A stretch of DNA of 64,000 bases, taken from contig DLHY01000065.1 in the NCBI GenBank assembly GCA_002483445.1, positions 23,336 to 87,335 on the forward strand. Direction: 5' to 3'. The notes under the pieces were generated by a model that was not told the origin of the DNA, searched no databases, and saw nothing but the letters and a program-made list of their open reading frames with translations. The translations under genes and the position numbers were made by a program. This DNA is from Blastocatellia bacterium UBA7656. Lineage in GTDB: Bacteria; Acidobacteriota; Blastocatellia; UBA7656. Shown in pieces: positions 2,641 through 46,080 of this stretch (the first letter of the stretch is position 1; each line of letters begins with the position of its first letter).

Positions 2641-3666
2641 ATGATGATAGCAAGCAATGAAAGAGGATTTTCGCTTCTTGAATTGATGATGGCTGTCTTT
2701 TTGACTGTCGGGCTGATGGGCGCGATCTTTGCGCTGACGAATCAAAACCAGCAGGTTTTCGTCACCGAATCGAGCGTCACCGAAATGAATCAAAACATGC
2801 GCACAGTCGTCGATCTGCTGACGCGCGACGTTCAATCAGCAGGGATGGGAATGCCTCGCGTTAATGGCAGTTTTCCCGCCATATTCTATAAGGACGGCGC
2901 AAATGGCAATCCCGATGAAATCCTTATACTCAACGGCGACCCGTTCGCGCCCTTTACGGAAATCAGCGAGCAAACAGAATCCGCAGGCAGCGCCGTATTC
3001 CAGTGCGATATACCTGCCGGACTGCAAATAACAGGCAACGGCGATAATCAACAGATGGGCTATCTGGATCAGGATGGAAACCTGAGGCCCATTTACCAGA
3101 GCTTTCAGACTGCTCCTCGCTACTACATCTGTTACGACGATGCTAATTCGAACACCAATAATGCTATGCTGCTCGCTCTCACTGATGATGGACAGGTCGT
3201 AGGCGGGAACAGGCTTCAGCTGATACATAACCCGACGAACGCCTTGAACGCTCCGGGTATATTTGGCTCGCCGCTCGACACGGGAGAACCGGATTATGCC
3301 AACTCAAGGTTAGCTCTGCTTGGCAGCCTGATCGGGTACCGACTCAACCGCGTTACCAACGAGCTTGAGCGATCAGACGATCTGATCGCCTGGTACCCGG
3401 TCGCTCAGGGCATAACCGATTTTCAAATAGAATACCGTGTTATATCGAGAGAAAATCCTATAGGGATAGTAAGCAGCGCTCCGGCAGACCGCAGGAACAT
3501 CCGCGCAGTGACCTTCACAATAAGCGCAAAAACACTGGATTTCAATCCGGGCGATAAGGGATACCGACAGGCTATTCAGAGGTTTGAAACCAGCCCGAGA
3601 AATTTCAATCTGTTGCGCAATAATAACCTGAGCGCAAACACTGAGGAAACGTGGGACATAGATTAG
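2641..3666 (+). CDS. PilW/GspJ-like minor pseudopilin
   Basis: GAGGAGG RBS. NERGFSLLELMMAVFLTVGLMGAIF prepilin motif. Size (341 aa) is typical of PilW-like proteins. Confidence 0.7.
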   Translation: MMIASNERGFSLLELMMAVFLTVGLMGAIFALTNQNQQVFVTESSVTEMNQNMRTVVDLLTRDVQSAGMGMPRVNGSFPAIFYKDGANGNPDEILILNGDPFAPFTEISEQTESAGSAVFQCDIPAGLQITGNGDNQQMGYLDQDGNLRPIYQSFQTAPRYYICYDDANSNTNNAMLLALTDDGQVVGGNRLQLIHNPTNALNAPGIFGSPLDTGEPDYANSRLALLGSLIGYRLNRVTNELERSDDLIAWYPVAQGITDFQIEYRVISRENPIGIVSSAPADRRNIRAVTFTISAKTLDFNPGDKGYRQAIQRFETSPRNFNLLRNNNLSANTEETWDID

Positions 3667-5750: not shown

Positions 5751-6158
5751 ACTGCCTGCTCGCATCCCGCTCGCCGTTTGAATCGCGCTTTCTTTACCTT
5801 CTCAGTTCATAACCGATGCCAGCCGACTTTCGCCATGTTATAATTTTAGCTGTAATTTGGTTGAGATCGCTGCCCTCAGTTTTGAGTTGGAAGTCGCCCC
5901 TTAGTCCGCCGCTATCATCAGCGGTTGCGTAAAAAATTTTATGAAGCGCCCGTCGGCCAGGAGTCGGCTGGCTTCTTTCCCGGTCTTTGCTGAAGCGGAA
6001 GGGCCGCCCAGGAGAAGTATATCCATGAGGGATCATTGCCTTGCGCCATCAGGTAGCCGACCGAAAGAATGAAGAGCCGGGAGGCACGAGCCAATCGCAC
6101 AAGGCTCGGGCCTATTCTGACTCCAGATTCCAGACTCCGGACTTTTCGGAGGAGGTTT

Positions 6159-14391: not shown

Positions 14392-14498
14392 CCTGGGAGC
14401 GCGCGCGGCTCGCGCGCTTGCTTGCGGAGTCAAAACTTTAGGGCTTTCCACAGACTCTACGTTTGAAGCCTTGCGCGCGAGCCGCGCGCGCTCCCAGG
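14392..14498. repeat. perfect 26-bp GC-rich inverted repeat with 55-nt spacer
   Basis: CCTGGGAGCGCGCGCGGCTCGCGCGC (14392-14417) is the exact reverse complement of 14473-14498. It begins 10 nt beyond the stop of the minus-strand gene 14508-14975. Confidence 0.95.
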
Positions 14499-23135: not shown

Positions 23136-23208
23136 TGAATCGATAACCTCCGCCTTGCAGGTAGAGCAATGCGGATACTAGCACGCGCTTTGAAAGGCGG
23201 GCAACTAA

Positions 23209-23307
23209 GGCAAAAGTAAAAAGGCAAAAGGCAAAAGTTGAAAAACCGTTTCGACTATCCTCAAATAGCCTTATACTGCGCGAATTTCTGTTTTTGCCTT
23301 TTGCCTT
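23209..23307. repeat. heptamer-armed hairpin (GGCAAAA arrays / TTTTGCC arrays)
   Basis: GGCAAAA GTAAAAA GGCAAAA GGCAAAA (23209-23236) faces TTTTGCC x2 (23292-23305). This gives a 16-bp perfect stem, AAGGCAAAAGGCAAAA (23221-23236 with 23292-23307), and a 55-nt loop. Confidence 0.9.
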
Positions 23308-25080: not shown

Positions 25081-26313
25081 ATGGCTGAATTCACCTGCCG
25101 TCTGGGCGCTCCGACGGGCGAAGTCGTGACGCGACAAATAGAAGCGACCTCTGAGAATGACCTCAGAGCCAAGCTCGAACGCGAGGGCTATCGCATATTC
25201 ACCCTCTCGGCGAGCGGTCGCGCCGGGTTGATGAGCGCGCTCAATCGCGATACAGGGCCGCGCAAAATCAAGCTCGAAGATTTTCTTCTCTTCAATCAGC
25301 AACTCTCCGCCCTTCTGCGCGCGGGGCTTCCCATACTTCAGGCCATAGGCATATTGCGCAAGCGCGTGCCGAGCGAGCAGTTGCGGATCGTACTCGAAGA
25401 CGTGGAAGAAAAAGTCCGCGCGGGGCTGGCGCTCTCGCAGGCGTTCGCCGCGCAGGGCGACACCTTCCCGCGAATCTACATAGCGACCATTCTGGCAGGC
25501 GAGCGGGCGGGCGCTTTGGATGAAGTGCTGCTTCGATATGTCAGCTATCAGAAGACCGTCACCGAAGCGCGACGCAAAATCAAAAAATCGCTCACCTATC
25601 CTACGGTGTTGATTTCAGCTTCGATGATTCTGGTGATGGTGCTTTCGACTTACGTCATACCGAAATTCATGCAGCTTTACGCCGGACAGTCCGAAGCCCT
25701 GCCCACGATCACTGTGGCAGTCGTCAGCACCGCCGAATTCATCAGCGCGAATTTGATCTGGCTGCTGCCTTCTGTGATCGGCCTCGTGATTTTTCTTCTC
25801 TTCTGGCGGCGCACTCCGCAGGGAAGATTTCAGATCGATAGCTGGATGTTGAGGACTCCCGTCGCGGGAGAAACCATAAGGCAGATGACCATAGCTCAAT
25901 TCACGCGCAGTCTGGCCACTCTGCTTGCGGGCGGAATAACTTTGCCTGAGTCTGTAGAGATAGCGAGCGAGTCGATCACCAACCGCGCCCTTCGCCGCGC
26001 AAGCGAAGGCGTGCTTGCAGGCATACGCGAAGGCCAGCCATTTACGGACAGCCTTGAGAAGTCAGGATGGGTCAGCGAGCTTGCGCTCGATATGATAGGC
26101 GTGGGCGAACGCGCGGGCGCGCTTCGCGAGATGCTCGACGAAGTAGCCAACTTCTATGACGGCGAGTTGGAAGTGCGACTCAATACCATAACCACGTTCA
26201 TCGAACCGATAATACTCATCTTCATGGGCGGGCTTGTGATGACCATACTTCTGGCTATGTACCTGCCGCTCTTCTACATGATCGGCAACCTCGGACAGGG
26301 CGGCGCGCAGTGA
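25081..26313 (+). CDS. type II secretion / type IV pilus platform protein (GspF/PilC family)
   Basis: Two T2SF repeats (LLFNQQLSALLRAGLPILQAI..., FTRSLATLLAGGITLPESV...) and three TM segments. ATG 25081 gives the usual ~410 aa; the upstream part of the ORF has no coding support. Confidence 0.9.
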   Translation: MAEFTCRLGAPTGEVVTRQIEATSENDLRAKLEREGYRIFTLSASGRAGLMSALNRDTGPRKIKLEDFLLFNQQLSALLRAGLPILQAIGILRKRVPSEQLRIVLEDVEEKVRAGLALSQAFAAQGDTFPRIYIATILAGERAGALDEVLLRYVSYQKTVTEARRKIKKSLTYPTVLISASMILVMVLSTYVIPKFMQLYAGQSEALPTITVAVVSTAEFISANLIWLLPSVIGLVIFLLFWRRTPQGRFQIDSWMLRTPVAGETIRQMTIAQFTRSLATLLAGGITLPESVEIASESITNRALRRASEGVLAGIREGQPFTDSLEKSGWVSELALDMIGVGERAGALREMLDEVANFYDGELEVRLNTITTFIEPIILIFMGGLVMTILLAMYLPLFYMIGNLGQGGAQ

Positions 26314-26420
26314 TGGGAGATGGGGTGAGAAGAATGGGCGAAAGAGAGAATGGGAGAATGGGAGACGAAAATTCATTTCTCCCATTCCCCCATTCTCCCA
26401 CTCCCCCACTCTCCCATCAC
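26310..26420. repeat. long imperfect hairpin of GGGAGA-type heptamer repeats filling the GspF-GspE spacer
   Basis: The outer 11-bp stem is perfect: GTGATGGGAGA (26310-26320) with TCTCCCATCAC (26410-26420). The inner stem matches 17/18: GAATGGGAGAATGGGAGA (26348-26365) with 26378-26395. The loop is 12 nt. The upstream TGA stop (26311-26313) lies inside the left arm. Confidence 0.9.
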
Positions 26421-26434
26421 AACGGGAGATTCTG

Positions 26435-28096
26435 ATGAGCGAAACGAGCGAACAAATAAACAAACCGAACGGAAATGCAGACATCGCTCCGCCTGGCGCG
26501 GCGAGTCAGGAAGAAGCGGCGGCCAGAGAGCTTGCGCGCCGCTACCGTCTGCCTTTCGTCCGTCTCAGTCCCGAAGAGCTTGATTACCATCTCGTCCACG
26601 ATCTGCCTGTAGACCTGATGGTGCGCCATAACTTCGTGCCTCTTCGCCGCGAAGGCGACATATTGCACGTCGCTATGGCTGACCCAACTGACCTCAACCT
26701 GATCGATGAGCTTGAAGCGCAACTTTCGGTCAGGCTCAAGACCGCAGTGGCGACGCGCTCTGCGATAGAAGAGGCTCTCAAGCGCGGAGACACGGCGGCG
26801 CGAATACTTCAGACCGCGACCGCCGGATTCCGCACCGATGCTATGACGCTCCTGCGCGAAACGGAACAGGGCGAAGAAGTACTCGACATCGACCGGCTGG
26901 CGGGCGATGAAGAGATGGCTCCCATCATCAAGCTCGTCGACACGGTCGTACTCAACGCGCTTGAACGCCGCGCTTCCGACATACACATCGAGACGCGCGA
27001 TTCGGATGTGATGGTCAAGTACCGAATCGACGGCGCGCTCTATCGCGCCGCAGACCCGATCGATATCTCTCATCATCAGGCTATCATTCAGCGCATCAAG
27101 GTTATGAGCGAACTCAACATCGCAGATCGCCGCATTCCGCAGGACGGGCGTTTCCGTATGCGGATTCGCGGGCGCAAGATCGATTTCCGCGTATCGATCA
27201 TGCCCACCATCCACGGCGAGAACTGCGTCATCCGTATTCTGGACAAGGAGCAGATCAACGAGTCGTTCCACGATCTCAATTTGGATGTTGTCGGATTCGC
27301 TCCGCAGGATTTGAAAAAGTTTCGCAAGTTCATAGCCGAGCCTTACGGGATGGTGCTCGTAACCGGGCCGACCGGTTCGGGAAAAACGACGACGCTTTAC
27401 GGCGCGCTGAACGAAATCAAAAACGAAGAAGACAAAATCATCACCATCGAAGACCCGGTTGAGTATCAGCTTCAGGGCATCACTCAGATTCCTGTGAATG
27501 AAAAGAAGGGACTGACCTTCGCGCGAGGGCTTCGCAGCATACTTCGGCACGACCCGGACAAGATAATGGTCGGCGAAATCCGCGACAACGAAACCGCGCA
27601 GATAGCCATTCAGTCGGCGCTCACGGGCCATCTCGTATTCACCACCGTACACGCCAACAACGTAATCGATGTCATCGGGCGATTCCTCAACATGGGCGTC
27701 GAACCTTACAACTTCGTGTCGAGCCTCAACTGCGTGCTGGCTCAACGCCTGGTGCGTATGCTGTGCCTGCATTGCAGGCGGGATTATCAGGCTGCGGATC
27801 AGGAACTGGCGGAATCGGGCCTCGACCTGGATAAGTATCGCAACGAGATTTTCTACAACGCCGTCGGATGCGAAGTGTGCAACTTCACAGGCTATCGCGG
27901 TCGAACCGCAATACACGAACTGCTGGACGTGACCGATCATATTCGCGAGATCATTCTTGAGCGAAGGCCCGGATCGGAAGTGCGTCGCGCTGCAAGAAGC
28001 GAGGGGCTGACTTCGCTGCGCGAATCGGCTGTGGCGAAAGTGTTCGCAGGCGTGACCACGCTTCACGAAATCAATCGCGTCACGTTCGTTGAATAG
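26435..28096 (+). CDS. type II secretion / type IV pilus assembly ATPase (GspE/PilB family)
   Basis: N-terminal T2SE-N region (RRYRLPFVRL...), Walker A GPTGSGKTTT, Asp box, Walker B KIMVGEIRD, His box, and a tetracysteine motif (CLHC...CEVC). Confidence 0.94.
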   Translation: MSETSEQINKPNGNADIAPPGAASQEEAAARELARRYRLPFVRLSPEELDYHLVHDLPVDLMVRHNFVPLRREGDILHVAMADPTDLNLIDELEAQLSVRLKTAVATRSAIEEALKRGDTAARILQTATAGFRTDAMTLLRETEQGEEVLDIDRLAGDEEMAPIIKLVDTVVLNALERRASDIHIETRDSDVMVKYRIDGALYRAADPIDISHHQAIIQRIKVMSELNIADRRIPQDGRFRMRIRGRKIDFRVSIMPTIHGENCVIRILDKEQINESFHDLNLDVVGFAPQDLKKFRKFIAEPYGMVLVTGPTGSGKTTTLYGALNEIKNEEDKIITIEDPVEYQLQGITQIPVNEKKGLTFARGLRSILRHDPDKIMVGEIRDNETAQIAIQSALTGHLVFTTVHANNVIDVIGRFLNMGVEPYNFVSSLNCVLAQRLVRMLCLHCRRDYQAADQELAESGLDLDKYRNEIFYNAVGCEVCNFTGYRGRTAIHELLDVTDHIREIILERRPGSEVRRAARSEGLTSLRESAVAKVFAGVTTLHEINRVTFVE

Positions 28097-28180
28097 TCCG
28101 TTGTCATTAGTCCCTTGTCCTTTGTCATCGCTCAATATGTTGTCTTCCCACTGCAAAGGACGAAGGACGAATGAGGACAT
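28096..28180. repeat. imperfect hairpin of GTCCTTT-type heptamers in the GspE-secretin spacer
   Basis: GTCCGTT GTCATTA GTCCCTT GTCCTTT GTCATCG (28096-28130; the first G is the last base of the TAG stop) faces AAAGGAC GAAGGAC GAATGAGGAC (28155-28178). Confidence 0.85.
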
Positions 28181-28265: not shown

Positions 28266-30872
28266 ATGGCAAAAAGTGGTTTGCTTCAGAAGGCACTGGC
28301 ATTGGCGCTGGCAGGTTTGTTCATAGCTCCGACGGCGGCATTGGCCGCCGATGGCAAGAAGCACTTCAAGGAAGGATTGAAGTACGAAGAGAATCGCCAG
28401 TGGGACAAGGCCGCCGAGAAATTCGTGATGGCGGTAGCCGAAAAGCCTTCGAACGTCGAGTATCAGTTGCATCTTCAGCGCGCTCTGGTAAACGCCGCCG
28501 TCATGTTAGTCGAGCGCGGCGACCTGCTTGCCGAAAAGAAAGAGTATAACGCCGCGTATCAGTCATACCGGCAGGCTTACGCTTTCGACCGCAACAACGA
28601 GTTTGCGAAGGTGAAGATGCGACGGATGATGGAAGCCCTGGGTCTTCCCATAGATTCCGAAAGCGGCCCGAACAAATCCGCATCAGACGCTAATGTGAAG
28701 ACGAAGTACACGGGCAAAGCTTCTATCCGGGCCATAGATATTCCGGCCACGCGCAAGTTCCAGAAGACCAGCGTCATCTCGCGCGAGCCTACCAGCCTTA
28801 TGTCGTTTATAGAGCAACTGGGCCAGACCATGGACCTCAACGTCGTCTTCGATCAGCAGGTCGTCAATCAGTTGAGAAGCCAGAGGCTCCAGATCGAACT
28901 GCGCGATATCACCTATCCCAAAGCGCTTGAGATAATTCTCAAGACCAACAACCTCATGTATGCGCAACTCGATTCGCGCACGATAGTCATCGCGCTCGAC
29001 AACCCGGCTGCGCGTCAGCGTTACGAGCCTTATGCCGTGCGCACTTTCTACATCAAGAACACCGACGCTACCGAAGTGCGCACCGCCATACAACAGACTC
29101 TGCAGACGAAAAACATTGTCAATGTCAAACAACTCAACGCCCTTATAATCCGCGATACGCCCACCAATCTGGAACTGATCGCGGCGATGATCCGCTCGCT
29201 CGACAAGAGCAAGGCTGAAGTTCTAATCGATGTGAACATCTATGAAGTCACGCACAGCGATATGATTCAAATCGGCAATCAGTTCCTCACTCCCGATCCG
29301 CAGAGAACCGGTCAGGCAATCGATCTCGGCGGGCTGGGCGGATTCGGACAGGGAAGATTCGTCGGCTCTTCGCTGAGAACGGATATGATCAGGGGGGCCA
29401 AGGGATTCGCGCTCGGTATTCCTACCAGTCTCATAAGCTTCTTTCAGGACAAGAGCAAGGCGAAGCTTCTCGCATCGACTCAAATTCATGCGTTCGACAA
29501 TGAGCCGAACGCCATTCGCATAGGCCAGAGAGTACCCATTCGAACTGCAACTTTTCCGACCGGAATCACCTCGGTTCAAAATCCTCCGAACACTCCGGGC
29601 AACCCGAACAACCCGAATAATCCCAACAATCCCAACAATCCCAACTTCAACGGCGGCTTCAGCGGCTTCGGCGCGGAACAGATTCAGTATGAAAACGTCG
29701 GTCTCAACATCGATGTCACGCCGCAGGTGTTCGGAGATGAAATCTACATGAAGATGAAGATCGAATCTTCATCCGTAGACAATCCCAACACGCTCACTCC
29801 GACCTTTTCTCAGCGCACTATGCAATCGAGCGCGCGCATCAAGGACGGACAGCCCACGCTCATTGCGGGGGTGAGCCAGAATCAGGAAGCGAAATCGGTT
29901 CGCGGCATTCCGATCATAGGATTGATCCCGATACTTGGGCGATTCTTCGCCACTCCCAGCACCACGAATCGTCAAAGCGATGTCGTGATAACTGTCACTC
30001 CGCATGTGCTGCGCGCGGCTGACATCACTGAAGAAGACCACCTGGCAAAAGATGCAGGCACGGCCAACGACGCAAATGCGCGACTGACTCTCGAAGAGAT
30101 TCTCTACCTTTCAGACATGGAAGAAACTGAGAAGAGTCAGACGGCAGCCGCGCCCCCTGCTGCCGATACGAGCAAAACGCCGACGACGGTGCCGACCGGA
30201 TTGCAGCCCGCGGGACAGACAAAAGAAGGAGTGGTCGTAACTCCGCCTCCCAGACAGACGATTCAGCCCAGAGTGGAAAACATGGTCGTTCAGAATGTGG
30301 GCGTCGAAGTCAAACCGCCTCCTCGCAAGGGCGAAGAAAACAAGCCTCGCCCGAATGAAGAAACCAAACCTCGCCCCGATGAAGAGCGGACGACTGCTCG
30401 CCGTCCGCCTCCGCCTGATGATGATGACGAAGAAGATGATGAGGAAGACGAGGAAGAAACCGCGCAGGCGCTCGTCACCCTGAGCGTGCGCAGCGCGTCG
30501 GCGGTGGCGACTAAGGGGCAGGACTTCTACGTTGCCATAATCGCCAACGGCAACTCTGAGCTTTACAGCGCAAACCTGTCGCTTTCTTATGACGCCAGCG
30601 TGATCGAAGTCAAGGCTGTGCGCGACGGCGGACTGCTTCGCAATCCATCGCTTCAGTTCCATGCTGAAAACGGATTGCTCAGCATTCAGATGGAGCGTCC
30701 CCAGGGGTCGGGCGGAGTTCCCGCGCGAGGGCAGTTGTTGCTGGTGATTTTCACCGTCAAGGGACAGGGGCAGTCGCCTCTCACGCTCAACGAGGGGCAG
30801 AACTTCCTGCGCACCTCGGCGGGCCAGTTGATCAACGTAAGACTTCAATCCTCTCAGATCGAGGTGAGATGA
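28266..30872 (+). CDS. secretin (GspD/PilQ family) with N-terminal TPR-like region and C-terminal cohesin-like domain
   Basis: Signal peptide. Secretin core (VLIDVNIYEV...KLLASTQIHAFDNEPNAIRIGQRVPI...GLNIDVTPQV...IPIIGLIPILGRFF...VVITVTPHVL). Then a Pro/acidic linker (PPPPDDDDEEDDEEDEEE) and a beta-sandwich-like tail (FYVAIIANGNSELYSANLSLSYDASVIEVKAV). Confidence 0.85.
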   Translation: MAKSGLLQKALALALAGLFIAPTAALAADGKKHFKEGLKYEENRQWDKAAEKFVMAVAEKPSNVEYQLHLQRALVNAAVMLVERGDLLAEKKEYNAAYQSYRQAYAFDRNNEFAKVKMRRMMEALGLPIDSESGPNKSASDANVKTKYTGKASIRAIDIPATRKFQKTSVISREPTSLMSFIEQLGQTMDLNVVFDQQVVNQLRSQRLQIELRDITYPKALEIILKTNNLMYAQLDSRTIVIALDNPAARQRYEPYAVRTFYIKNTDATEVRTAIQQTLQTKNIVNVKQLNALIIRDTPTNLELIAAMIRSLDKSKAEVLIDVNIYEVTHSDMIQIGNQFLTPDPQRTGQAIDLGGLGGFGQGRFVGSSLRTDMIRGAKGFALGIPTSLISFFQDKSKAKLLASTQIHAFDNEPNAIRIGQRVPIRTATFPTGITSVQNPPNTPGNPNNPNNPNNPNNPNFNGGFSGFGAEQIQYENVGLNIDVTPQVFGDEIYMKMKIESSSVDNPNTLTPTFSQRTMQSSARIKDGQPTLIAGVSQNQEAKSVRGIPIIGLIPILGRFFATPSTTNRQSDVVITVTPHVLRAADITEEDHLAKDAGTANDANARLTLEEILYLSDMEETEKSQTAAAPPAADTSKTPTTVPTGLQPAGQTKEGVVVTPPPRQTIQPRVENMVVQNVGVEVKPPPRKGEENKPRPNEETKPRPDEERTTARRPPPPDDDDEEDDEEDEEETAQALVTLSVRSASAVATKGQDFYVAIIANGNSELYSANLSLSYDASVIEVKAVRDGGLLRNPSLQFHAENGLLSIQMERPQGSGGVPARGQLLLVIFTVKGQGQSPLTLNEGQNFLRTSAGQLINVRLQSSQIEVR

Positions 30873-30876
30873 AGCG

Positions 30877-31356
30877 ATGCACAAACGGCAGGGCGGTTTC
30901 ACGCTGCTCGAAATCATCATAGTGATAACGATTCTCGCGGTGCTGACCACAGCCGCTATTCCCATGGTTCGCAATTCGGTCAAGCGCGAGCGCGAGATAG
31001 AACTGAGGCTTGCGCTCAGGGAACTGCGTCGGGCCATTGACGCCTACAAGCTCTACCACGACCAGACAGGCGGCGGGGCCATACCCATAGAGTGGAAGAC
31101 GCCGAGCGGCTATCCCAAAACGCTTGAAATCCTCGTAGAAGGATTCATACCGGCAAACCTCGTCGGCACGAGCGGCAATCTCAAGCGATTCCTGCGGCGC
31201 ATTCCCATCAATCCGATGACCGGAGACACGGAATGGGCGCTGCGCTCTTACAAGGACAAACCGGATTCGACTTCCTGGGGCGGCGAGGATGTTTTCGATG
31301 TTTACTGCAAAAGCGACCAGATCGCGCTCAACGGCTCGAAGTATAGTGACTGGTGA
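30877..31356 (+). CDS. GspG-like major pseudopilin
   Basis: RQGGFTLLEIIIVITILAVLTTAAIP prepilin motif, followed by GspG-type ELRLALRELRRAIDAYK and RIPINPMTG. Confidence 0.8.
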   Translation: MHKRQGGFTLLEIIIVITILAVLTTAAIPMVRNSVKREREIELRLALRELRRAIDAYKLYHDQTGGGAIPIEWKTPSGYPKTLEILVEGFIPANLVGTSGNLKRFLRRIPINPMTGDTEWALRSYKDKPDSTSWGGEDVFDVYCKSDQIALNGSKYSDW

Positions 31357-31373
31357 AGTGATGAGTGATGAGT
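31353..31373. repeat. GTGAAGT GATGAGT GATGAGT heptamer array starting at the stop codon
   Basis: The TGA stop of the pseudopilin gene (31354-31356) is inside the first unit. This is the same unit family as the arrays at 31830 and 32260. Confidence 0.9.
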
Positions 31374-31408
31374 AAAAAAATTTCAACGCTCGTCGGTTGT
31401 GAAGAAGT

Positions 31409-31828
31409 ATGAAAAGCATTATCAGAAAATCGAATTCTCCGCTGGCGGCTCGGCAGCATGGATTCACTTTGCTTGAACTCATAATGGTGATGACCATCAT
31501 GGTCATACTCGTGGCGGTCAGTGTGAGCGCCTATCAGCAGATTCAACTCAAGGCGAAGGAGACCATACTCAAAGAAAACCTTCGCGTGATGCGGCGGGCC
31601 ATAGATATGTACGCCGCCGACAAGGAGCAGTTGCCGCAATCGGTCGAAGACCTGGCAACGGCGGGCTATATTCGCGCTGTGCCGATTGATCCCATAACAG
31701 ACCAGGCCGACTGGTCTGTGGAGACGGGCGAAGACACTGTAGCGCGCGAAGGCGGAGAGGGAATGGTCGACGTTCGCAGCAGCGCCGAGGGTACGGGGAC
31801 GGACGGCAGAGCTTACAGGGAATACTGA
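31409..31828 (+). CDS. GspG-like pseudopilin (second copy)
   Basis: RQHGFTLLELIMVMTIMVILVAVSV prepilin motif, LRVMRRAIDMYAADK and VPIDPITD. Confidence 0.8.
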   Translation: MKSIIRKSNSPLAARQHGFTLLELIMVMTIMVILVAVSVSAYQQIQLKAKETILKENLRVMRRAIDMYAADKEQLPQSVEDLATAGYIRAVPIDPITDQADWSVETGEDTVAREGGEGMVDVRSSAEGTGTDGRAYREY

Positions 31829-31829
31829 A

Positions 31830-31857
31830 GTGATGAGTGATGAGTGATGAGTGATGA
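31830..31857. repeat. (GTGATGA) x4 perfect tandem array, left arm of a 28-bp inverted repeat
   Basis: Four exact heptamers begin 2 nt after the TGA at 31826-31828. They contain the GTG/ATG start of the next gene. TGA, ATG and GTG occur in all three frames. Confidence 0.95.
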
Positions 31858-32234
31858 GCGGGAGAATAGAGAGATTTGAAGATTTCATCGCGTGGCAAAA
31901 AGCGCGCAAGCTGACCGCTGCTATTTACAAAGTTACCGATCAGGGAAAGTTCTCGCGGGATTACGGACTCAGAGACCAGATTCGTCGAGCCGCTGTTTCC
32001 ATAATGTCAAACATTGCCGAAGGGTTTGAGAGAGGGCGAGCTTCCGAATTCCACCAATTCATTTCTATCGCTAAAGCGTCCTGCGCCGAAGTGCGCTCGC
32101 AGCTTTATGTGGCGATGGATGCCGGTTACCTCGATCAGGAATCTTTCGACGTTTTGCACGAGCAGGCGAAGGAAGTCGGGAGAATCATTGGTGGACTCCG
32201 CGCTTCCGTAGAAAGGAAACGAGACGAGCGATGA
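31854..32234 (+). CDS. four-helix-bundle protein (23S rRNA intervening-sequence / Avd-like family)
   Basis: [13 protein letters not shown]...[50 protein letters not shown] matches the family signature (W-Q-x-A, Q-x-x-R-A-x-x-S-I-x-x-N-I-A-E-G, F-x-x-I-A-x-x-S-x-x-E). Confidence 0.88.
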
Positions 32235-32259
32235 ATGATGAACGGTGAGGAATAAACAC

Positions 32260-32287
32260 TCATCACTCATCACTCATCACTCATCAC
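32260..32287. repeat. (TCATCAC) x4 perfect tandem array, right arm of the 28-bp inverted repeat
   Basis: It is the exact reverse complement of 31830-31857. It ends 7 nt before the ATG of the PilM-like gene (32295). Confidence 0.95.
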
Positions 32288-32294
32288 TTAAAAA

Positions 32295-33233
32295 ATGTCA
32301 GTTCTTCAGAAATACCTTTTCACTCCACATGCGCCGAACACGGCGGCAGGTTTCACGGACGACAGTTTTTCGGTAGTCGATCTCGGTCGGGGTCGCGGCG
32401 CATTCTCACTGGCGTCGAGCGCAGTGACCGAATTGCCTCGCGGAGTCCTGAGCGCGTCTTTCGATGAGCCGAATATTCAAAACCGGGATGAACTGATAGA
32501 TATCATGCTCGGCACGGTGGAGGCCGCCGGACTTCGCAATAAAAAGCGATGGTCGGTCGCCCTGCCCGAAGGCGCGGCGCGAACCCTAATCGTCGCGCTT
32601 GAGAGCAAACCTTCAAGCCGGAAGGAACTTTCCGAAGTGCTTTCGTGGAAAATAGAGCGCGTGATAGCCGCTCCCGCTTCCCAGTTGCGAGTGAGCCGAC
32701 AGCGGCTTTCGCGCGAAGCGGGACAGGAACGTTATCTCGTCACGGTAGCGCACGAAGAAGTCATCGCCGAATATGAAGATATATTCGAGGCCATAGGCTG
32801 GCAGGCAGGACTGATCGCGCCGCGACATCTGGGCGAGGCGCAATGGCTTGCATGGGCCGATTCCGCAGGCGAAGGCATGATGATATCGGCCAACCGTCTG
32901 GGGTTCAGCGGAGTGATAGTCAAAGGCGGCGAGCCTGTGATGGTGCGAGTCTCGACATGCGAGCCTGAAGCGAGGATAGATGAACTGCACCGATTCGCGC
33001 TCTATTATCGCGACCGCGTTGAAGAATCGAGCAAAGCAGCGGTAGAGATGAACTGCCTGCTGGTGCTGGGCGACATTGACGAAAATGAAGCGCAAAGCGC
33101 AGTCGCAGACGCGCTCGGCAATCGCCCGCGGCTGATCTCGGCAGCCGGGTTCGGATTCGATCTCGCGGGCCAGCCTATAAAATTCGAGCAACTGGCCGCA
33201 GCCGCAGGACTAGCGACGATGGCATGGCAATGA
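32295..33233 (+). CDS. PilM/GspL-like pilus assembly protein (actin-like fold, tentative)
   Basis: Position after the pseudopilins. The N-terminal pattern (FSVVDLGRGRGAFSLASSAVTELPRGVL...) and the size (312 aa) resemble PilM-type proteins. No strong motif recognised. Confidence 0.45.
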   Translation: MSVLQKYLFTPHAPNTAAGFTDDSFSVVDLGRGRGAFSLASSAVTELPRGVLSASFDEPNIQNRDELIDIMLGTVEAAGLRNKKRWSVALPEGAARTLIVALESKPSSRKELSEVLSWKIERVIAAPASQLRVSRQRLSREAGQERYLVTVAHEEVIAEYEDIFEAIGWQAGLIAPRHLGEAQWLAWADSAGEGMMISANRLGFSGVIVKGGEPVMVRVSTCEPEARIDELHRFALYYRDRVEESSKAAVEMNCLLVLGDIDENEAQSAVADALGNRPRLISAAGFGFDLAGQPIKFEQLAAAAGLATMAWQ

Positions 33234-38610: not shown

Positions 38611-38657
38611 GTCAGGGGTCAGGGGTCAGGGGTCAGGGGTCAGGGGTCAGGGGTCAG
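38611..38657. repeat. (GTCAGGG) x6 perfect tandem heptamer array in the xylF-xylG spacer
   Basis: Six exact units at 38611-38652 plus a partial GTCAG. The array starts 2 nt after the xylF TAG (38606-38608). Confidence 0.95.
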
Positions 38658-38689: not shown

Positions 38690-40210
38690 ATGTCCGACAG
38701 AAACGATTCTTTCATCCTTGAGATGCGGGGCATCTCGAAAAGCTTTCCGGGCGTGCGCGCGCTCGACCGGGTTTCATTCGATCTTCGCGCGGGAGAGATT
38801 CACGCTTTGGTCGGCGAAAACGGCGCGGGCAAAACGACGCTGATGAAAATCCTCGGCGGAGTCTACCCGCAGTACGAAGGCGAAATTTATCTCGACGGAC
38901 AGAGTGAACGATTCAAAAACGTGCGCGACTCCGCCCGATCAGGCATCGCCATCATCTATCAGGAGCTTTCGCTCGTTTTGGACATGAGCGTGGCCGAAAA
39001 TATCTTTCTTGGCCGTCTGCCTCATCGCTCAGGTTTCGTTCGATGGAACAAACTATACAAGGATACAGACGAATTGCTCGCGAGACTGAATCTGCGCCTC
39101 GACCCGCGCACCGTCGTGCGCAATCTAGGAATCGGCCAGCAGCAGATGATCGAAATAGCAAAGGCGCTGTCCCAGCGATCTGGAATACTTGTGCTGGACG
39201 AACCGACAGCCGCGCTCACAGACTCGGAGACGGAAACGCTCTTCGCCATTCTCAACAAACTGAGAGATGAGGGCGTCGCGATGATTTACATCTCGCACAA
39301 GCTCAAAGAAGTTTTTCGTATCAGCGACCGCATCACCACTCTTCGCGACGGGCGAGTGGTCGAGGCATGTGACACAACAGACACGAGTGAATCGCGAGTG
39401 ATAGCAGGGATGGTCGGGCGAGAGGTCAGCCGTGTTTTTCCTGAGCGCGCAAGCGCGCCGGGTGAAGTGATTTTCGAAGCGCGCGACATAACAGTTCGCG
39501 ACCGGGTTCTTTCTGACAGAGTGCTGGTCGAGCGCGTAAGCCTCTCGGTGAGGCGCGGCGAGGCGCTTGGAATCGCGGGGCTGATGGGCGCGGGCCGTAG
39601 TGATTTACTGATGGCTCTCTTCGGCGCGCACGCGGGTCGGGTTACGGGAGAAATTTTCATCGAAGGTCGGAGGGCGCGCATAGCGTCTCCCGCCGATGCG
39701 ATCAGACATGGGATAGGATTCGTCACCGAAGACAGGAAACGATACGGGCTTGTGATGGATCAGACGATTCTCAAAAACATAACACTTGCCGCGCTGAGGC
39801 GGCTTTCGGGCCGGTTCATAACTCGCCGGGAGCGCGAGGCCGCGGCGGGCAATCAGGTTATTAGCGATCTCAGGATCAAAACGCCTTCGCTTCAATCAAT
39901 CGCCGGGAGTCTTTCGGGAGGCAATCAACAGAAAACCGTGCTTGCGAAATGGCTGCTGACTGCGCCGCGCGTGCTGCTGCTCGACGAGCCGACGCGAGGA
40001 ATAGATGTCGGCGCGAAGCAGGAAATCTACGCGCTGATAAATCGATTGGCCGCAGAAGGGCTGGCCATCATTCTGGTTTCGTCGGAGTTGCCCGAAGTCG
40101 TGGGACTTTGCGACCGCGTGATTGTATTGCGCGAGGGCCGCATCGCGGGCGAATTTGCGCGCCTTGAGGCCACGTCTGAAAAAGTAATGCAATGCGCGAT
40201 GGGAGGGTGA
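38690..40210 (+). CDS. xylG: sugar (xylose) ABC transporter ATP-binding protein, duplicated ATPase
   Basis: Two ABC cassettes: GENGAGKTTLMK / LSLGQQQMIEIAKAL / LVLDEPT, and a degenerate second Walker A (GLMGAGRS) / LSGGNQQK / LLLDEPTRGID. Confidence 0.88.
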   Translation: MSDRNDSFILEMRGISKSFPGVRALDRVSFDLRAGEIHALVGENGAGKTTLMKILGGVYPQYEGEIYLDGQSERFKNVRDSARSGIAIIYQELSLVLDMSVAENIFLGRLPHRSGFVRWNKLYKDTDELLARLNLRLDPRTVVRNLGIGQQQMIEIAKALSQRSGILVLDEPTAALTDSETETLFAILNKLRDEGVAMIYISHKLKEVFRISDRITTLRDGRVVEACDTTDTSESRVIAGMVGREVSRVFPERASAPGEVIFEARDITVRDRVLSDRVLVERVSLSVRRGEALGIAGLMGAGRSDLLMALFGAHAGRVTGEIFIEGRRARIASPADAIRHGIGFVTEDRKRYGLVMDQTILKNITLAALRRLSGRFITRREREAAAGNQVISDLRIKTPSLQSIAGSLSGGNQQKTVLAKWLLTAPRVLLLDEPTRGIDVGAKQEIYALINRLAAEGLAIILVSSELPEVVGLCDRVIVLREGRIAGEFARLEATSEKVMQCAMGG

Positions 40211-40250
40211 TGGGTGTTAGGGGATGGGTGTTAGGGGATGGGTGATGGGT
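40209..40250. repeat. (GATGGGTGTTAGGG) x2 plus (GATGGGT) x2 array bridging xylG and xylH
   Basis: The array starts inside the xylG TGA (40208-40210) and contains the candidate xylH start codons (ATG at 40224, 40238, 40245). Confidence 0.92.
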
Positions 40251-41405
40251 CAGGATTTGACTGAAACGAAAAAGCGATCAGGTGAATTCAATTCTGCGCT
40301 TAGGACTTACTCGATGGTGATCGCGCTCGTCATTGTGTGGGCGATATTCGCTTACACGACTGACGGCGTATTTCTTGAAGCGAGAAATTTTTCAAACCTG
40401 ATGCGGCAATCGACCATCACCGCCATTCTTTCGGTCGGCATGTTGATGGTGATCGTGACAGGCCACATCGATCTTTCGGTCGGCTCGCTGGTGGGGATTG
40501 CGGGAGGAGTGGCCGCAGTCGCGCAGGCGTGGTTAGGCTGGGGGCTTGAATTGTCCATACTCGCATCGCTGGCGACTGCGCTTCTCATCGGCGCGCTTCA
40601 GGGCTTTCTCGTTGCTTATCTCAACATCCCGGCATTCATAGTCACGCTCGGCGGGTTGCTCGCCTGGCGCGGAGCGATCAAAGGCATCTCTCAAGGCAAC
40701 ACGATTCCCGTTCAGATACCGGCTTTCAAATCAATCGGGCAGGGTTACATCGCGGCTGCTGTGGGCATAGCTCTGGCAATCGCGGCAGTAATCGCAATCG
40801 TCGGCGTCGCGCTCTGGCGCGAGCGTTCGCGCCGCCGACACGGATTCGGCTCCGGGAGCCAGTTTCGGCTTGCCGCTCGGATTCTCATTCCTTCGATTCT
40901 CGTCGTCGCTTTGGTTTGGGCATTCAATCGTTATGCAGGGGTTCCGGTTCCTGTATTGATTCTGGTCGTGGTCGCTCTCGCGGGCGCGATGCTCGTCGAG
41001 GGGACTACCTTCGGTCGATATCTTTATGCGATAGGCGGCAACACAGATGCGGCGCGGCTTTCCGGGGTCAACGTCCGCCGCCATACGCTTGCGGCCTTCT
41101 CGATCATGGGCGCGCTGGCAGGGCTTGCCAGCATCATCTACACGGCTCGTGTTGGGAGCGCCGCGCCTGACGCAGGGCGGTTGCTTGAACTTGACGCTAT
41201 AGCTGCGTGCGTAATCGGGGGGACGAGTCTGATGGGCGGGCGGGGATCGGTTCAGGGCGCGTGTCTCGGCGCGTTGTTTATGGCCAGCCTCGATAACGGG
41301 ATGTCACTGGAAAATTATCAGGACTTCGCTCAGGACATTGTGAAAGGAATTATTCTCGTGGCCGCCGTCGGGATTGATATGATTGGCAGACGCAAAAATG
41401 GGTGA
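40245..41405 (+). CDS. xylH: xylose ABC transporter permease
   Basis: TTDGVFLEARNFSNLMRQSTITAILSVGMLMVIVTGHIDLSVGS parallels the XylH N-terminal block. About 10 TM segments. Start choice among the in-repeat ATGs is uncertain. Confidence 0.85.
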   Translation: MGQDLTETKKRSGEFNSALRTYSMVIALVIVWAIFAYTTDGVFLEARNFSNLMRQSTITAILSVGMLMVIVTGHIDLSVGSLVGIAGGVAAVAQAWLGWGLELSILASLATALLIGALQGFLVAYLNIPAFIVTLGGLLAWRGAIKGISQGNTIPVQIPAFKSIGQGYIAAAVGIALAIAAVIAIVGVALWRERSRRRHGFGSGSQFRLAARILIPSILVVALVWAFNRYAGVPVPVLILVVVALAGAMLVEGTTFGRYLYAIGGNTDAARLSGVNVRRHTLAAFSIMGALAGLASIIYTARVGSAAPDAGRLLELDAIAACVIGGTSLMGGRGSVQGACLGALFMASLDNGMSLENYQDFAQDIVKGIILVAAVGIDMIGRRKNG

Positions 41406-41429
41406 TGGGTGATGGGTGATGGGTGATGG
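41402..41429. repeat. (GTGATGG) x4 perfect tandem array, left arm of inverted repeat
   Basis: The xylH TGA stop (41403-41405) is inside the first unit. The array is 27/28 complementary to 41816-41843. Confidence 0.95.
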
Positions 41430-41436
41430 GTGTCAG

Positions 41437-41808
41437 CTATCTTTGCCTTGTAAGAGAATTTCGCAGTGCGTAAAGCTGTTTGGACAAAGAGATCATCTGT
41501 TGTGTGTGACGATCAGAGGTTTCCGGCGAGATGTAATTCAACCGTCTGGCTATTTCGATTTGCGTTTGCAATTCCGACAGAGACCCGATGGCAATTGATA
41601 TAAAGTGAAGATACTCGTTGATGTGTTCTCGCGTATGTCCTTCCGCAATATTTGATGGAATGGATACGGCTGCCCGACGCATCTGACTTGTGAGTCCATA
41701 AATTTCGTGGGATGGAAATGACTCAGTGAAACGATACACCTGTACAACCATATCCATTCCCGACTGCCAGACTCGCAAATCGCGAAAATCATTGATGGCC
41801 ATCTTCAT
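41437..41808 (-). CDS. four-helix-bundle protein (23S rRNA IVS / Avd-like family), second copy
   Basis: FRDLRVWQSGMDM...GLTSQMRRAAVSIPSNIAEGHTREHINEYLHFISIAIGSLSELQTQIEIA. GGGAGGG RBS (reverse complement of 41811-41817). The start is ATG 41808, or 41802 with better SD spacing. Confidence 0.88.
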   Translation of the reverse strand: MKMAINDFRDLRVWQSGMDMVVQVYRFTESFPSHEIYGLTSQMRRAAVSIPSNIAEGHTREHINEYLHFISIAIGSLSELQTQIEIARRLNYISPETSDRHTQQMISLSKQLYALRNSLTRQR

Positions 41809-41815
41809 TGCCCTC

Positions 41816-41843
41816 CCATCACCTATCACCCATCACCCATCAC
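41816..41843. repeat. CCATCAC CTATCAC CCATCAC CCATCAC array, right arm of inverted repeat
   Basis: It is the reverse complement of the (GTGATGG) x4 array with one substitution. It contains the TGA stop (reverse complement of 41840-41842) of the upstream minus-strand gene. Confidence 0.95.
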
Positions 41844-42999: not shown

Positions 43000-43034
43000 C
43001 AGAAATCAGAAGTCAGAAGTCAGAAGTCAGAATA
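43000..43034. repeat. CAGAAGT-type heptamer array (5 units, 3 exact)
   Basis: CAGAAAT CAGAAGT CAGAAGT CAGAAGT CAGAATA lies between the dihydropyrimidinase stop (43053) and the start of the next minus-strand gene (42979). On the coding (minus) strand TGA recurs every 7 nt. Confidence 0.93.
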
Positions 43035-44460: not shown

Positions 44461-46080
44461 TCAAAAATTTTTCGTCAGCCCCTGCTGGGCCGCGATGAAG
44501 TAGAGAAAGTAGTCGTTGAAATGCAGATGCGCAAGCTCCTCGGGAGGAGACGCTGGAGGCGGCCCTTCGATCAGCACCGGCAGGATTTCAGGCGCGGCCA
44601 TTTCATCCCCGTTCTTGCGACGGAGCGCATAGCGCACCTCTTCCATCACCCAACGGGACTGGCGAGCCGACTGAGACCAGAAGAGCAGAAACAGATCGCT
44701 CTCATCGATGTGGCGATAAAGCTCGCGCTCCCATCGCGTGCCCGGCTCAAGCGCCAGCACATCCTGAAAGAAATCAATTCTCAGTCGCGCGAGCATCTGC
44801 ACGCGCTTTAGAACCTCCTGGCGATCCTCGGAGGCATAGGATATGAAAGCTTTTCTGTAAGCGCGCCCGTTGCCCGTGGGCGCGGATGCTTCAGGCAGCG
44901 CGAGTTGATCCCACGCGATAACTTTGATCTTGAATTTGATATGTCCTACGGGGATGGAATCCTGACTGACGGTTACGGTTCCGATGACGGTTCCAAGTTT
45001 GGCGTTGACAGGAAGGATGGCTTCGAATTGAACGGATGCCGGAGCGCCGCGCCATACGAGCGACTGCGCCGGGTCAGCGATTTCAAGTCCCGGCATCGAG
45101 AGATGAAACATCAGTCGCGATCCGCGCCGGATTTCAGTTTCGAGGCTCTTGAACCCGCGCCGCGCGGCTTCGGAGTCGAACTCGCGCGCAAGCCTGGCGG
45201 CGGCGGCGTCCTGTTCGGGCATGTGCGCGAAGACCTGAACGAAAAGGCTCTCGCCCTGCTGCGCTTCTGATCGCGAAAAGACCGTGCAATCTACGGGGTC
45301 GCTCCGGGGGTCTGCGGTCAGTCTCGGTCTCGCTCGCGGAAGCTCTCCTGAAGAATCGTTGAGCCGGTCGGTCGGCGCAACCAATGCAGGGTCAATCGAT
45401 TGGCACTCGTCGAGAGGATCAGGCTGCGCGCCTGAATTTGCGGGCGGCCTTGCGCCGGCTGTTGGGGGTTCGTCCAGTGACCCTGATGATTTACCGCTGC
45501 CGCCCATAGCATTCAGCATGTCCCCATAAATCGAATTAAGCGTCCCTGGCGGGCGGTCACTGCTTCGGGGGGCAGACGCTCTGCGCTGTGTGCCGCAGTG
45601 CGGGCAGAATTTTGCAGCCGCTCTCACAGCGCCCCCGCAATTAAAACAATAGGCTCTCTCGGACACGGCAGGGCGCGACGCTCTTTCGAGTCGTTCTTTG
45701 ATCTGAGCGGCAAGCTCGCGGAGTTGCCACACTGCGAGGTCGGTCAGTGTGCAAATCGGCGGGCCGATAAAAAACTGAATGTTCGGATCGATTACGGTTC
45801 CTGCAAGGCATATTGGGATTACGGGTATTCCATTTTTGACTGCGTACTCCAGTTCGCGAATCAGCGACACGAACTTGTTTGCGTTTGTCGAAAGCAGGAG
45901 CATCATCAGGCGGGTTTGAGACAAAACTTCGCATACGACTGCCGATTGCTCTGCGGTCAGTCTGGTCGAGCCTCGCGGCGCGATGACGCAACTGATTTTT
46001 TCAGTCGCCAGAGCCGCGCTGATTATCTCAGCGATCTCTTTGTCAGAAGGAGCGTGACTGATGAATACATCGTAGGACAT
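44461..46080 (-). CDS. double-TIR-domain protein with central zinc ribbon
   Basis: N-terminal TIR-like domain (YDVFISHAPSDKEIAE...LMMLLLSTNANKFVSLIRELEYA). Zinc ribbon CFNCGG...CPHCG. A disordered Pro/Ser linker, then a beta-rich middle domain. C-terminal TIR-like domain (KAFISYASEDRQ...LFLLFWSQSARQSRWVMEEVRYAL). Confidence 0.8.
   Translation of the reverse strand: MSYDVFISHAPSDKEIAEIISAALATEKISCVIAPRGSTRLTAEQSAVVCEVLSQTRLMMLLLSTNANKFVSLIRELEYAVKNGIPVIPICLAGTVIDPNIQFFIGPPICTLTDLAVWQLRELAAQIKERLERASRPAVSERAYCFNCGGAVRAAAKFCPHCGTQRRASAPRSSDRPPGTLNSIYGDMLNAMGGSGKSSGSLDEPPTAGARPPANSGAQPDPLDECQSIDPALVAPTDRLNDSSGELPRARPRLTADPRSDPVDCTVFSRSEAQQGESLFVQVFAHMPEQDAAAARLAREFDSEAARRGFKSLETEIRRGSRLMFHLSMPGLEIADPAQSLVWRGAPASVQFEAILPVNAKLGTVIGTVTVSQDSIPVGHIKFKIKVIAWDQLALPEASAPTGNGRAYRKAFISYASEDRQEVLKRVQMLARLRIDFFQDVLALEPGTRWERELYRHIDESDLFLLFWSQSARQSRWVMEEVRYALRRKNGDEMAAPEILPVLIEGPPPASPPEELAHLHFNDYFLYFIAAQQGLTKNF

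Follow-up and report, generated by a model that had tools for sequence, protein, structure and literature searches.

A four-helix-bundle gene bracketed by inverted heptamer arrays in a pilus/type II secretion operon of an acidobacterium: a probable intervening-sequence-type cassette in an mRNA

Our analysis concerns positions 31828-32289 (hereafter cassette 1) of a 64,000-nt stretch of the genome of Blastocatellia bacterium UBA7656 (GCA_002483445.1, contig DLHY01000065.1); this whole stretch is called the window, and all window coordinates refer to it. Cassette 1 is probably a selfish cassette of the intervening sequence (IVS) type that resides in an mRNA, with a stem that is likely a substrate of RNase III. 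Sequence comparison shows it to be a discrete element, consisting of a gene and an inverted repeat built from tandem arrays, of the same design as those 23S rRNA IVSs that carry an open reading frame (ORF). An IVS-like cassette had been proposed in a sequence-only reading of the window, and the proposal is supported by true 23S IVSs from Propionivibrio, an alphaproteobacterium and Coxiella, in which the same array-built stem is found.

Structure of cassette 1 and empty sites in relatives

Both arms of cassette 1 consist of one tandemly repeated heptamer. The sequence-only reading had described (GTGATGA)x4 at 31830-31857 with its exact reverse complement at 32260-32287, and both arrays were recovered by Tandem Repeats Finder (TRF) as (AGTGATG)x4.3 at 31829-31858 and (CACTCAT)x4.6 at 32257-32288, with 100% match in both. 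A repeat finder likewise returned a perfect inverted repeat, which measures 31 nt instead of the 30 bp first given and has arms 400 nt apart (coordinates in Table 1). Shuffled sequence is expected to contain 0.01 copies of the doubled heptamer (14-mer, at most 1 mismatch), and the window has 7. The left arm overlaps by one base with the stop codon that ends the upstream gspG2-like gene (TGA, 31826-31828), and the ATG of the cassette gene (31854) lies inside the last heptamer. The right arm ends 5 nt before the ATG of the downstream gene, which starts at 32295 and thus, as had been read, 7 nt past the right array. The gene does sit in the loop; its length was corrected from 127 aa (counted from GTG 31851) to 126 aa, since the homologues align from ATG 31854. 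The predicted RNA fold of 31815-32300 is closed by the 31-bp stem (-180 kcal/mol, z = -6.4), and a degenerate copy of the unit near the 3' end of the ORF could, judging from its letters, pair locally with the right arm. Neither promoter-like nor terminator-like sites were found in cassette 1 or in a second cassette of the window (cassette 2, 41398-41843), and the cassette 1 stem is followed by TTAAAAAATG, without a U-tract. Since the cassette 1 gene has the orientation of the host genes and no promoter- or terminator-like signal of its own, read-through is the simplest form of its transcription.

The setting in a pilus/type II secretion system (T2SS) operon was confirmed by domain matches for the T2SSE ATPase, the secretin and two prepilin-type genes. 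The neighbouring genes encode pseudopilins, a 312-aa protein of the operon and an SNF2 helicase. For the downstream gene (32295-33233), previously called PilM-like, no sequence match was found in Pfam, NCBIfam or PDB, so that this label is positional only and stays unconfirmed.

The ORF in the loop belongs to the 23S-IVS/four-helix-bundle family, as had been recognized from the sequence: PF05635 (E = 6.8e-38, 129.6 bits, cut-off 33.8) and TIGR02436 (E = 1e-35, 122.3 bits, cut-off 24) are both matched above their curated cut-offs. The protein model (pLDDT 88) is a four-helix bundle with helices at residues 12-28, 39-59, 63-89 and 95-124. The top Foldseek matches of this model are 2GSC (TM 0.8-0.9) and 2RLD, followed by the Avd proteins 4DWL/8UB7 of diversity-generating retroelements (DGRs; TM ~0.7-0.8). 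XCC0516 of Xanthomonas campestris (PDB 2GSC) is the best match in sequence as well as in fold; 2GSC comprises five chains, and the window protein was modelled as a monomer. Of the earlier label ‘Avd-like’, the similarity of the modelled fold is borne out, while both Avd profile models stay below their cut-offs (bAvd 32 vs 40 bits, DivGenRetAVD 29 vs 80 bits). PF05635 and TIGR02436 are the sole family matches of the cassette 1 protein, with none to a HUH/Y1 (IS200/IS605-like) transposase. Exact-protein look-ups of both cassette proteins returned no match. Proteins of the family are basic (median pI 9.2). The dN/dS ratio is 0.04 for one close pair (L012/L013) and 0.11 for another (L014/L015); farther pairs are synonymously saturated, with pN of 0.18-0.27. 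These substitution patterns show that the cassette protein is held by purifying selection. In our view, its most probable role is to bind the stem formed by the repeats, or the single strands of that stem.

Cassette 2 lies in a setting unrelated to that of cassette 1, between an ABC sugar-type transporter operon and a gene for a 379-aa zinc-ribbon protein, which run towards each other. The host genes on the two sides have their stop codons inside the arms of cassette 2, which form an inverted repeat (29 nt, 97% complementary). The RNA of cassette 2 is also predicted to fold on the terminal stem (z = -6.4), and its protein is 37% identical to that of cassette 1.

Searches with the downstream gene of cassette 1 yielded nine relatives, all of them Acidobacteriota of the class Blastocatellia. 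Comparison of the gspG-pilM junction, as suggested in the sequence-only reading, proved informative: the gene order T2SSE-secretin-gspG1-gspG2-next gene is conserved in 9/9 relatives, a family gene is found at the junction in 0/9, and in the closest relative the site is cleanly empty. In this genome (MAG146, locus L002; 84% aa identity in the downstream gene, 87% in the 379-aa gene) the junction reads GAATAT TGA AAAATG (TGAAAAATG). The same junction in the window reads GAATAC TGA AGTGATGA...TCATCACTT AAAAAATG. With the boundaries of cassette 1 at TGA/A...TT/AAAAAATG (slashes mark the ends of the insert) and the empty site at TGAAAAATG, 0-2 bp of duplicated A are possible. Cassette 2 is missing in L091 and L092. 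The 379-aa orthologue in MAG146 and L092 ends with ...ACT TGA, followed by an ordinary hairpin, and in the window the cassette 2 array begins exactly at the stop of this gene (...ACG TGA TGGGTGATGG). Alignment of the filled with the empty sites shows that cassettes were gained in the window lineage at two sites.

Association of the gene family with inverted tandem arrays

An association between this gene family and inverted arrays, suspected from the single case, holds across the sampled genomes and metagenomes. Loci were sampled via two conserved peptide motifs. The species set comprised 80 loci with relatives at 39-77% identity from species-representative genomes of many phyla. The score was the best ungapped inverted repeat between the two gene flanks, and the controls were random placements of the same size in the same loci, not matched small genes. 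A score of at least 14 was reached around 57/73 genes as compared to 1/798 random placements, and an inverted repeat with arms of tandem period 6-9 was present in 42/73 versus 0/798 (Fisher p 5e-52). The period in these 42 loci was 7 (30 loci), 8 (8 loci) or 9 (4 loci). Replication with 80 independent metagenome loci gave inverted repeats scoring at least 14 in 44/67 versus 1/260 and tandem arms in 39/67 versus 0/260. With both sets pooled, 101 of the 140 analysable genes are bracketed (controls: 2/1058) and 81 of the 140 have tandem arms (controls: 0). TRF independently detected paired reverse-complementary arrays around 52/82 genes. The 7-mer arrays most often have 4 units (109/251; median 4.4).

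The cassettes also show a consistent placement relative to their neighbours. With the neighbour defined as the longest ORF within 300 nt beyond each arm, co-orientation with the cassette gene was found for 34/39 upstream (p 2e-6) and 32/41 downstream neighbours. The upstream host stop lies -5 to +25 nt from the array start in ~22/39 cases, and G exceeds C in the first arm in 31 loci, with 3 loci showing the opposite. Stop triplets in the units numbered 27/42 against ~22 expected, an enrichment too weak for use (P 0.055). That the arrays of both window cassettes have the same polarity with respect to the gene was dropped as evidence, since either strand of any inverted repeat reads X...rc(X).

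The repeat units follow the protein. Unit distance drops with protein identity (Spearman -0.35, 0/2000 permutations as extreme), with a mean unit difference of 1.1 positions for pairs of at least 65% aa identity and ~3.4 for pairs below 45%. Four phyla share the unit AGGACTG, which is found beside close homologues in Acidobacteriota, Syntrophobacteraceae, Thermodesulfovibrionales and Burkholderiales, and the subfamily of cassette 1 has units of the form NNN-TGAG. Cassettes within one genome mostly carry unrelated units, even of different periods. Units specific to the host are ruled out by this finding; the near-identical pair in the window is the exception. Sequence comparison shows that gene and arrays are inherited and transferred as one unit.

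The content of the loops is bimodal. In 728 kb of surveyed sequence, 106 inverted array pairs were found, and ~30 gene-less hairpins were counted; loops span either 0-90 nt without a gene or ~310-630 nt with a family gene, and a few longer loops result from joining the arms of adjacent elements. None of the 106 pairs encloses a gene of another type. Of 63 additional arrays located up to 4 kb from a cassette, 18 have the unit of that cassette, compared to 3% for the arrays of other loci (p 4e-13).

A number of further observations were made in the sampled loci. Among IMG/VR viral contigs (22 loci, L294-L315), family genes are array-bracketed in 14/21 cases versus 0/110, and phages may serve as cassette vehicles. 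A Patescibacteria metagenome-assembled genome (MAG) from the candidate phyla radiation (CPR), with its tiny genomes, carries a cluster of five family genes within 8 kb (L090, 1800-7800), all of which have arrays of their own. In two non-rRNA cassettes (L175, 600-1450; L193, 1650-2430) both arms flanking the gene have expanded to ~200-350 nt of GACAGAT-like units. L001 and many of the loci L011-L293 are short-read contigs that end at or within arrays beside family genes, L001 beginning 35 nt ahead of the downstream gene; short-read assemblies thus appear to break at the cassettes.

23S rRNA IVSs with an ORF occur in Leptospira, Coxiella burnetii and Haemophilus/Pasteurellaceae, at the tips of helices 25 and 45. 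Two of the four loci with a family gene among those chosen by array sequence alone (see below; among the matches listed) are 23S rRNA genes of Propionivibrio (L207/L194), with a 413-nt insert that reads ...GAUCAGAG (GACAGAW)x4 - ORF - (WUCUGUC)x4-5 CUGAUGG..., and an alphaproteobacterial 23S gene (L180) has a similar insert with GGCAGAW arms. The rrn operon of L180 has a further GACAGAT array at position 3155, between the 5S rRNA and a tRNA gene. The 23S sequence motifs with which loci L011-L090 were checked also detected the true rRNA loci. No Rfam match was obtained anywhere in the window, which holds no rRNA. The Coxiella IVS is 428 nt long with a 28-bp terminal stem, carries two to three GACAGAT units (plus a degenerate one) just before the ORF ATG, their number varying among strains, and has been shown experimentally to be cut by RNase III at the start of the first repeat (PMC4990558). 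The window element resembles such an IVS in its length of ~410-460 nt, in the PF05635 ORF in the loop, in the terminal inverted repeat of ~28-31 bp and in the ~4 tandem heptamers per arm that reach the start codon. In contrast to the IVSs, cassette 1 lies between protein-coding operon genes and not in helix 45 or 25 of 23S rRNA. Likewise, the sampled cassette genes are under purifying selection, whereas the Coxiella ORF is reported as decaying and untranslated.

Proposed mechanism and competing explanations

In the polycistronic RNA the two arms would pair to form a perfect 31-bp duplex, which would bury the start codon of the cassette gene and abut the upstream stop codon. By analogy with the 28-bp stem of the Coxiella IVS, RNase III could cut this duplex. 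Cleavage would excise the cassette RNA and part the pseudopilin message from that of the downstream assembly genes, leaving half-stems at the new ends. An mRNA cleaved in this way would become separate messages, whereas the pieces of a cleaved rRNA stay together in the ribosome.

Several points weigh against this interpretation. RNase III cleavage in an mRNA is argued by analogy. Transposase, integrase and reverse transcriptase genes are absent in and beside the cassette. A clear target-site duplication was not found either, the insertion junction falling inside an A-run that allows for 0-2 bp. No near-identical copy was found elsewhere (the best relative in the metagenome scan has 78% aa identity), which makes recent mobility no more than a possibility. 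About one fifth of the family genes have no convincing bracketing repeat, most of the sampled sequences come from MAGs, and sampling by two peptide motifs means that the most divergent family members are under-sampled. Also, the association of gene and arrays, which holds from the gene side, does not hold from the array side. In an array-first sample of 120 loci, chosen solely by the Coxiella-type pattern (GACAGAT)2GACAGAA among the matches listed, which did not include Coxiella itself, a family gene lay at the array in 4; among the first 80 of these loci, most were solitary arrays and 12 were gene-less hairpins. With arrays around most genes and genes at few arrays, the gene almost always implies arrays and arrays rarely imply the gene. 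Finally, gene-less inverted heptamer-array hairpins with other units occupy the gspG2/next-gene junction in four relatives (L003, L005, L009 and L010). Since arrays far outnumber family genes and gene-less hairpins stand at this junction too, the arrays could be a host feature of which the gene takes advantage.

This last point leads to the main rival, in which array hairpins are host features of operon spacers, e.g. protecting or attenuating 3' ends after pilin genes, and the gene is a passenger that inserts into the loops of hairpins already present or is captured by them. In its favor, next to the array-side counts and the gene-less hairpins at the junction and in the surveyed sequence, L004 and L006 have ordinary non-array hairpins at this junction; the hairpin between T2SSE and the secretin gene is orthologous in the window and in L002, with diverged units and conserved pairing; and the rRNA IVSs at the tips of helices 25 and 45 offer a parallel. 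Against it stands the closest relative, which has no hairpin at the gspG2/next-gene site of the cassette. With no array hairpin at either insertion site in this genome, arrays and gene arrived together, or the arrays arrived after the gene. The same or nearly the same unit on close homologues in different phyla is a further argument, and hairpins made by the host would not predict unrelated units and different periods among the cassettes of one genome. The empty sites without a hairpin, the cross-phylum units and the cassette-specific units weaken this rival, which we consider rather unlikely.

One could go further than the IVS-type reading and regard PF05635/TIGR02436 proteins and heptamer arrays as one widespread system, a new class of transposase-less elements, in which a pentameric protein of Avd fold would recognize its own unit and drive, or be required for, the creation, spread or upkeep of array hairpins. 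These would arise both in intergenic DNA and in rRNA; the cassettes would be the masters, and the numerous arrays and hairpins without a gene would descend from them. We offer this broader scheme as a speculation that has a small chance of being right.

A related model takes its lead from repetitive extragenic palindromic sequences (REPs), their doublets (REPINs) and the REP-associated tyrosine transposases (RAYTs). Here, the protein would be a trans-acting partner that recognizes its cognate unit and favours the formation, spread or maintenance of array hairpins; the cassettes would be ‘masters’, from which arrays and hairpins without a gene derive as non-autonomous progeny. As in REP/REPIN-RAYT systems, a single gene is inversely flanked by short repeats, which may be the same as those dispersed without a gene in intergenic regions. 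X. campestris provides one case: its genome has 186 GGGAATC arrays, including 70 in inverted pairs, and repeat #15 of Rehm et al. (2015) is a 28-nt, 4-unit GGGAATC array 6 nt from bccP (PMC4692102). We found that this repeat extends over the start codon of XCC0516, a gene of the family. The excess of shared units within 4 kb of cassettes, the solitary arrays of the same unit one gene upstream of both window cassettes, and the hairpin at 26310-26420, which is missing in the closest relative MAG146 and thus an insertion relative to L002, would also fit, as would a basic protein under purifying selection whose modelled fold is that of Avd, a pentamer holding RNA and a polymerase. By contrast, a 120-aa helical bundle has neither a nuclease nor a polymerase motif, many window arrays have units unlike those of either cassette, and in L152 the arms of the gene are related to, yet different from, the neighbouring arrays. 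Unlike RAYTs, the protein shows no HUH/Y1 motifs, the repeats are tandem arrays and not single palindromes, and there is no sign of catalysis. We regard this model as unlikely, somewhat more so than the host-hairpin rival.

Two remaining readings can be dismissed. Inverted repeats as ends of an invertible segment (phase-variation switch) or as a transcription terminator/attenuator are highly improbable: a 31-bp perfect repeat could support inversion and a long hairpin can pause or stop transcription, but there is no recombinase gene nearby, a switch predicts co-orientation in about half of the cases instead of the 34/39 observed, no U-tract or terminator-like site follows the stem, and the 400-nt loop encodes a protein under selection. 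That the gene encodes the Avd accessory protein of a DGR, as the weak bAvd and DivGenRetAVD matches and the 4DWL/8UB7-like fold might suggest, is the least credible idea and was rejected: both profile scores are below cut-off, the gene has a pseudopilin gene on one side and an operon gene on the other, the ORFs within 5 kb include no reverse transcriptase, 31000-33000 contains no template/variable direct repeat, and the best fold matches are the non-DGR proteins 2GSC and 2RLD. The likeness to Avd (4DWL, 8UB7), a pentamer that binds RNA and a polymerase, is confined to a basic four-helix bundle, at 16-18% identity. To our knowledge, Avd genes have not been described as array-bracketed.

Further features of the window and implications

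The features of the window are listed in Table 1. All extra arrays and hairpins outside the two cassettes are intergenic, and most begin at a stop codon.

Table 1. Coordinates of cassettes, arrays and neighbouring genes in the window.
Feature	Position	Strand	Remarks
Solitary array GACTCCA x3.6	6119-6143		intergenic
Gene-less array hairpin	23207-23307		inverted 7- or 8-nt arrays
Gene-less array hairpin	26310..26420	+	upstream of T2SSE gene, right after TGA stop; outer units GTGATGG-like
Gene-less heptamer-array hairpin	28096..28171	+	between T2SSE and secretin
Prepilin-type (GspG-like) gene 1	30877..31356	+	N_methyl domain; GspG equivalog below cut-off
Solitary array of cassette 1 unit (AGTGATG x2.4)	31357..31373	+	directly after gspG1-like stop, one gene upstream
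Prepilin-type (GspG-like) gene 2, upstream host of cassette 1	31409..31828	+	profile matches
Left arm of cassette 1, (AGTGATG)x4.3	31828..31858	+	forms the perfect 31-nt repeat together with 32259-32289
Four-helix-bundle gene, 126 aa from ATG (127 aa from GTG 31851)	31854..32234	+	PF05635/TIGR02436, pI 9.2
Degenerate direct copy of cassette 1 unit (AGCGATGAATGATGAA)	32227..32242	+	family D1, 81%; over ORF 3' end and stop
Right arm of cassette 1, (CACTCAT)x4.6	32259..32289	+	exact reverse complement of left arm
Downstream host gene, 312 aa	32295..33233	+	kept in this operon in Blastocatellia
Solitary array GTCAGGG x6.7, G-rich	38611-38657		intergenic, directly after stop codon
Solitary array of cassette 2 unit (GGGTGAT x6.6)	40204..40250	+	ABC ATPase/permease junction, one gene upstream
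Cassette 2 arm beside ABC permease, (ATGGGTG)x5	41398..41432	+	permease stop TGA (41403-41405) inside array
Cassette 2 gene, 123 aa from ATG	41437..41808	-	PF05635 E 1.6e-38, 131.6 bits
Cassette 2 second arm, (CCCATCA)x4.1	41815..41843	+	379-aa gene stop (41840-41842) inside array
Solitary array CAGAAGT x4.7	43000-43032		intergenic

Some features of the window and of its closest relative are of separate interest. The secretin (28266-30872, + strand) combines low-complexity repeats of PNNPNN and acidic type with a cohesin domain at its C-terminus, an architecture unusual for a secretin of T2SS or type IV pili. A perfect, G+C-rich 26-nt inverted repeat (CCTGGGAGCGCGCGCGGCTCGCGCGC) with a 55-nt loop lies in the intergenic region 14392-14498; it has no tandem units and is therefore a different kind of element. 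The minus-strand gene at 44461-46080 encodes a 539-aa protein with a zinc-ribbon and a C-terminal TIR domain (TIR_2, E 9e-30; weakly ThsB-like), which is possibly defence-related. MAG146 has a second, partial copy of the 379-aa gene on contig 38 (L093, 4001-4267), comprising the C-terminal 89 residues at 83% identity and located ~6 kb from the full copy; the synteny downstream of the gene differs from that in the window.

23S IVSs with an ORF have been known since 1993 and the excess of intergenic heptamers since 1990, and cyanobacterial STRRs are short tandemly repeated heptamer arrays. Thus IVSs with this ORF, tandem heptamers in the Coxiella IVS, and intergenic heptamer arrays including inverted pairs are all known. 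Published arrays of this kind, such as the STRRs, those of Xanthomonas and the TAACTGA repeats of Beggiatoaceae, which are intergenic tandem heptamer arrays (MacGregor 2015, PMC4679880), share with ours the few head-to-tail 7-nt units between genes, in many cases following a stop codon or preceding a start codon. They often form convergent inverted pairs and vary in length among close relatives. What sets the cassettes apart is a specific gene family in long loops; the studies of those arrays drew no link to a gene in the loop. The view that heptamer-bounded cassettes of this family are undescribed needs to be narrowed, since the Coxiella heptamers were noted in 2016 (PMC4990558), and, within the literature searched, stands for the family-wide association. 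A literature search, with subscription journals and database family notes outside its reach, found no paper on family-wide bracketing by inverted tandem arrays, nor on PF05635 cassettes as operon insertions, on the co-inheritance of unit and protein, or on bimodal loop content.

Three puzzles may be facets of one element: the 23S IVSs with an ORF, the very large family of ‘four helix bundle proteins’ and the excess of intergenic heptamers. The cassettes should be annotated as units and not as stray hypothetical genes. If our interpretation is true, the function of the four-helix-bundle family becomes directly testable, and the cassettes would be built-in RNA processing sites able to uncouple the genes of an operon. 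If protein and arrays indeed form one system, this would explain both the heptamer excess in bacterial genomes and the origin of rRNA IVSs.

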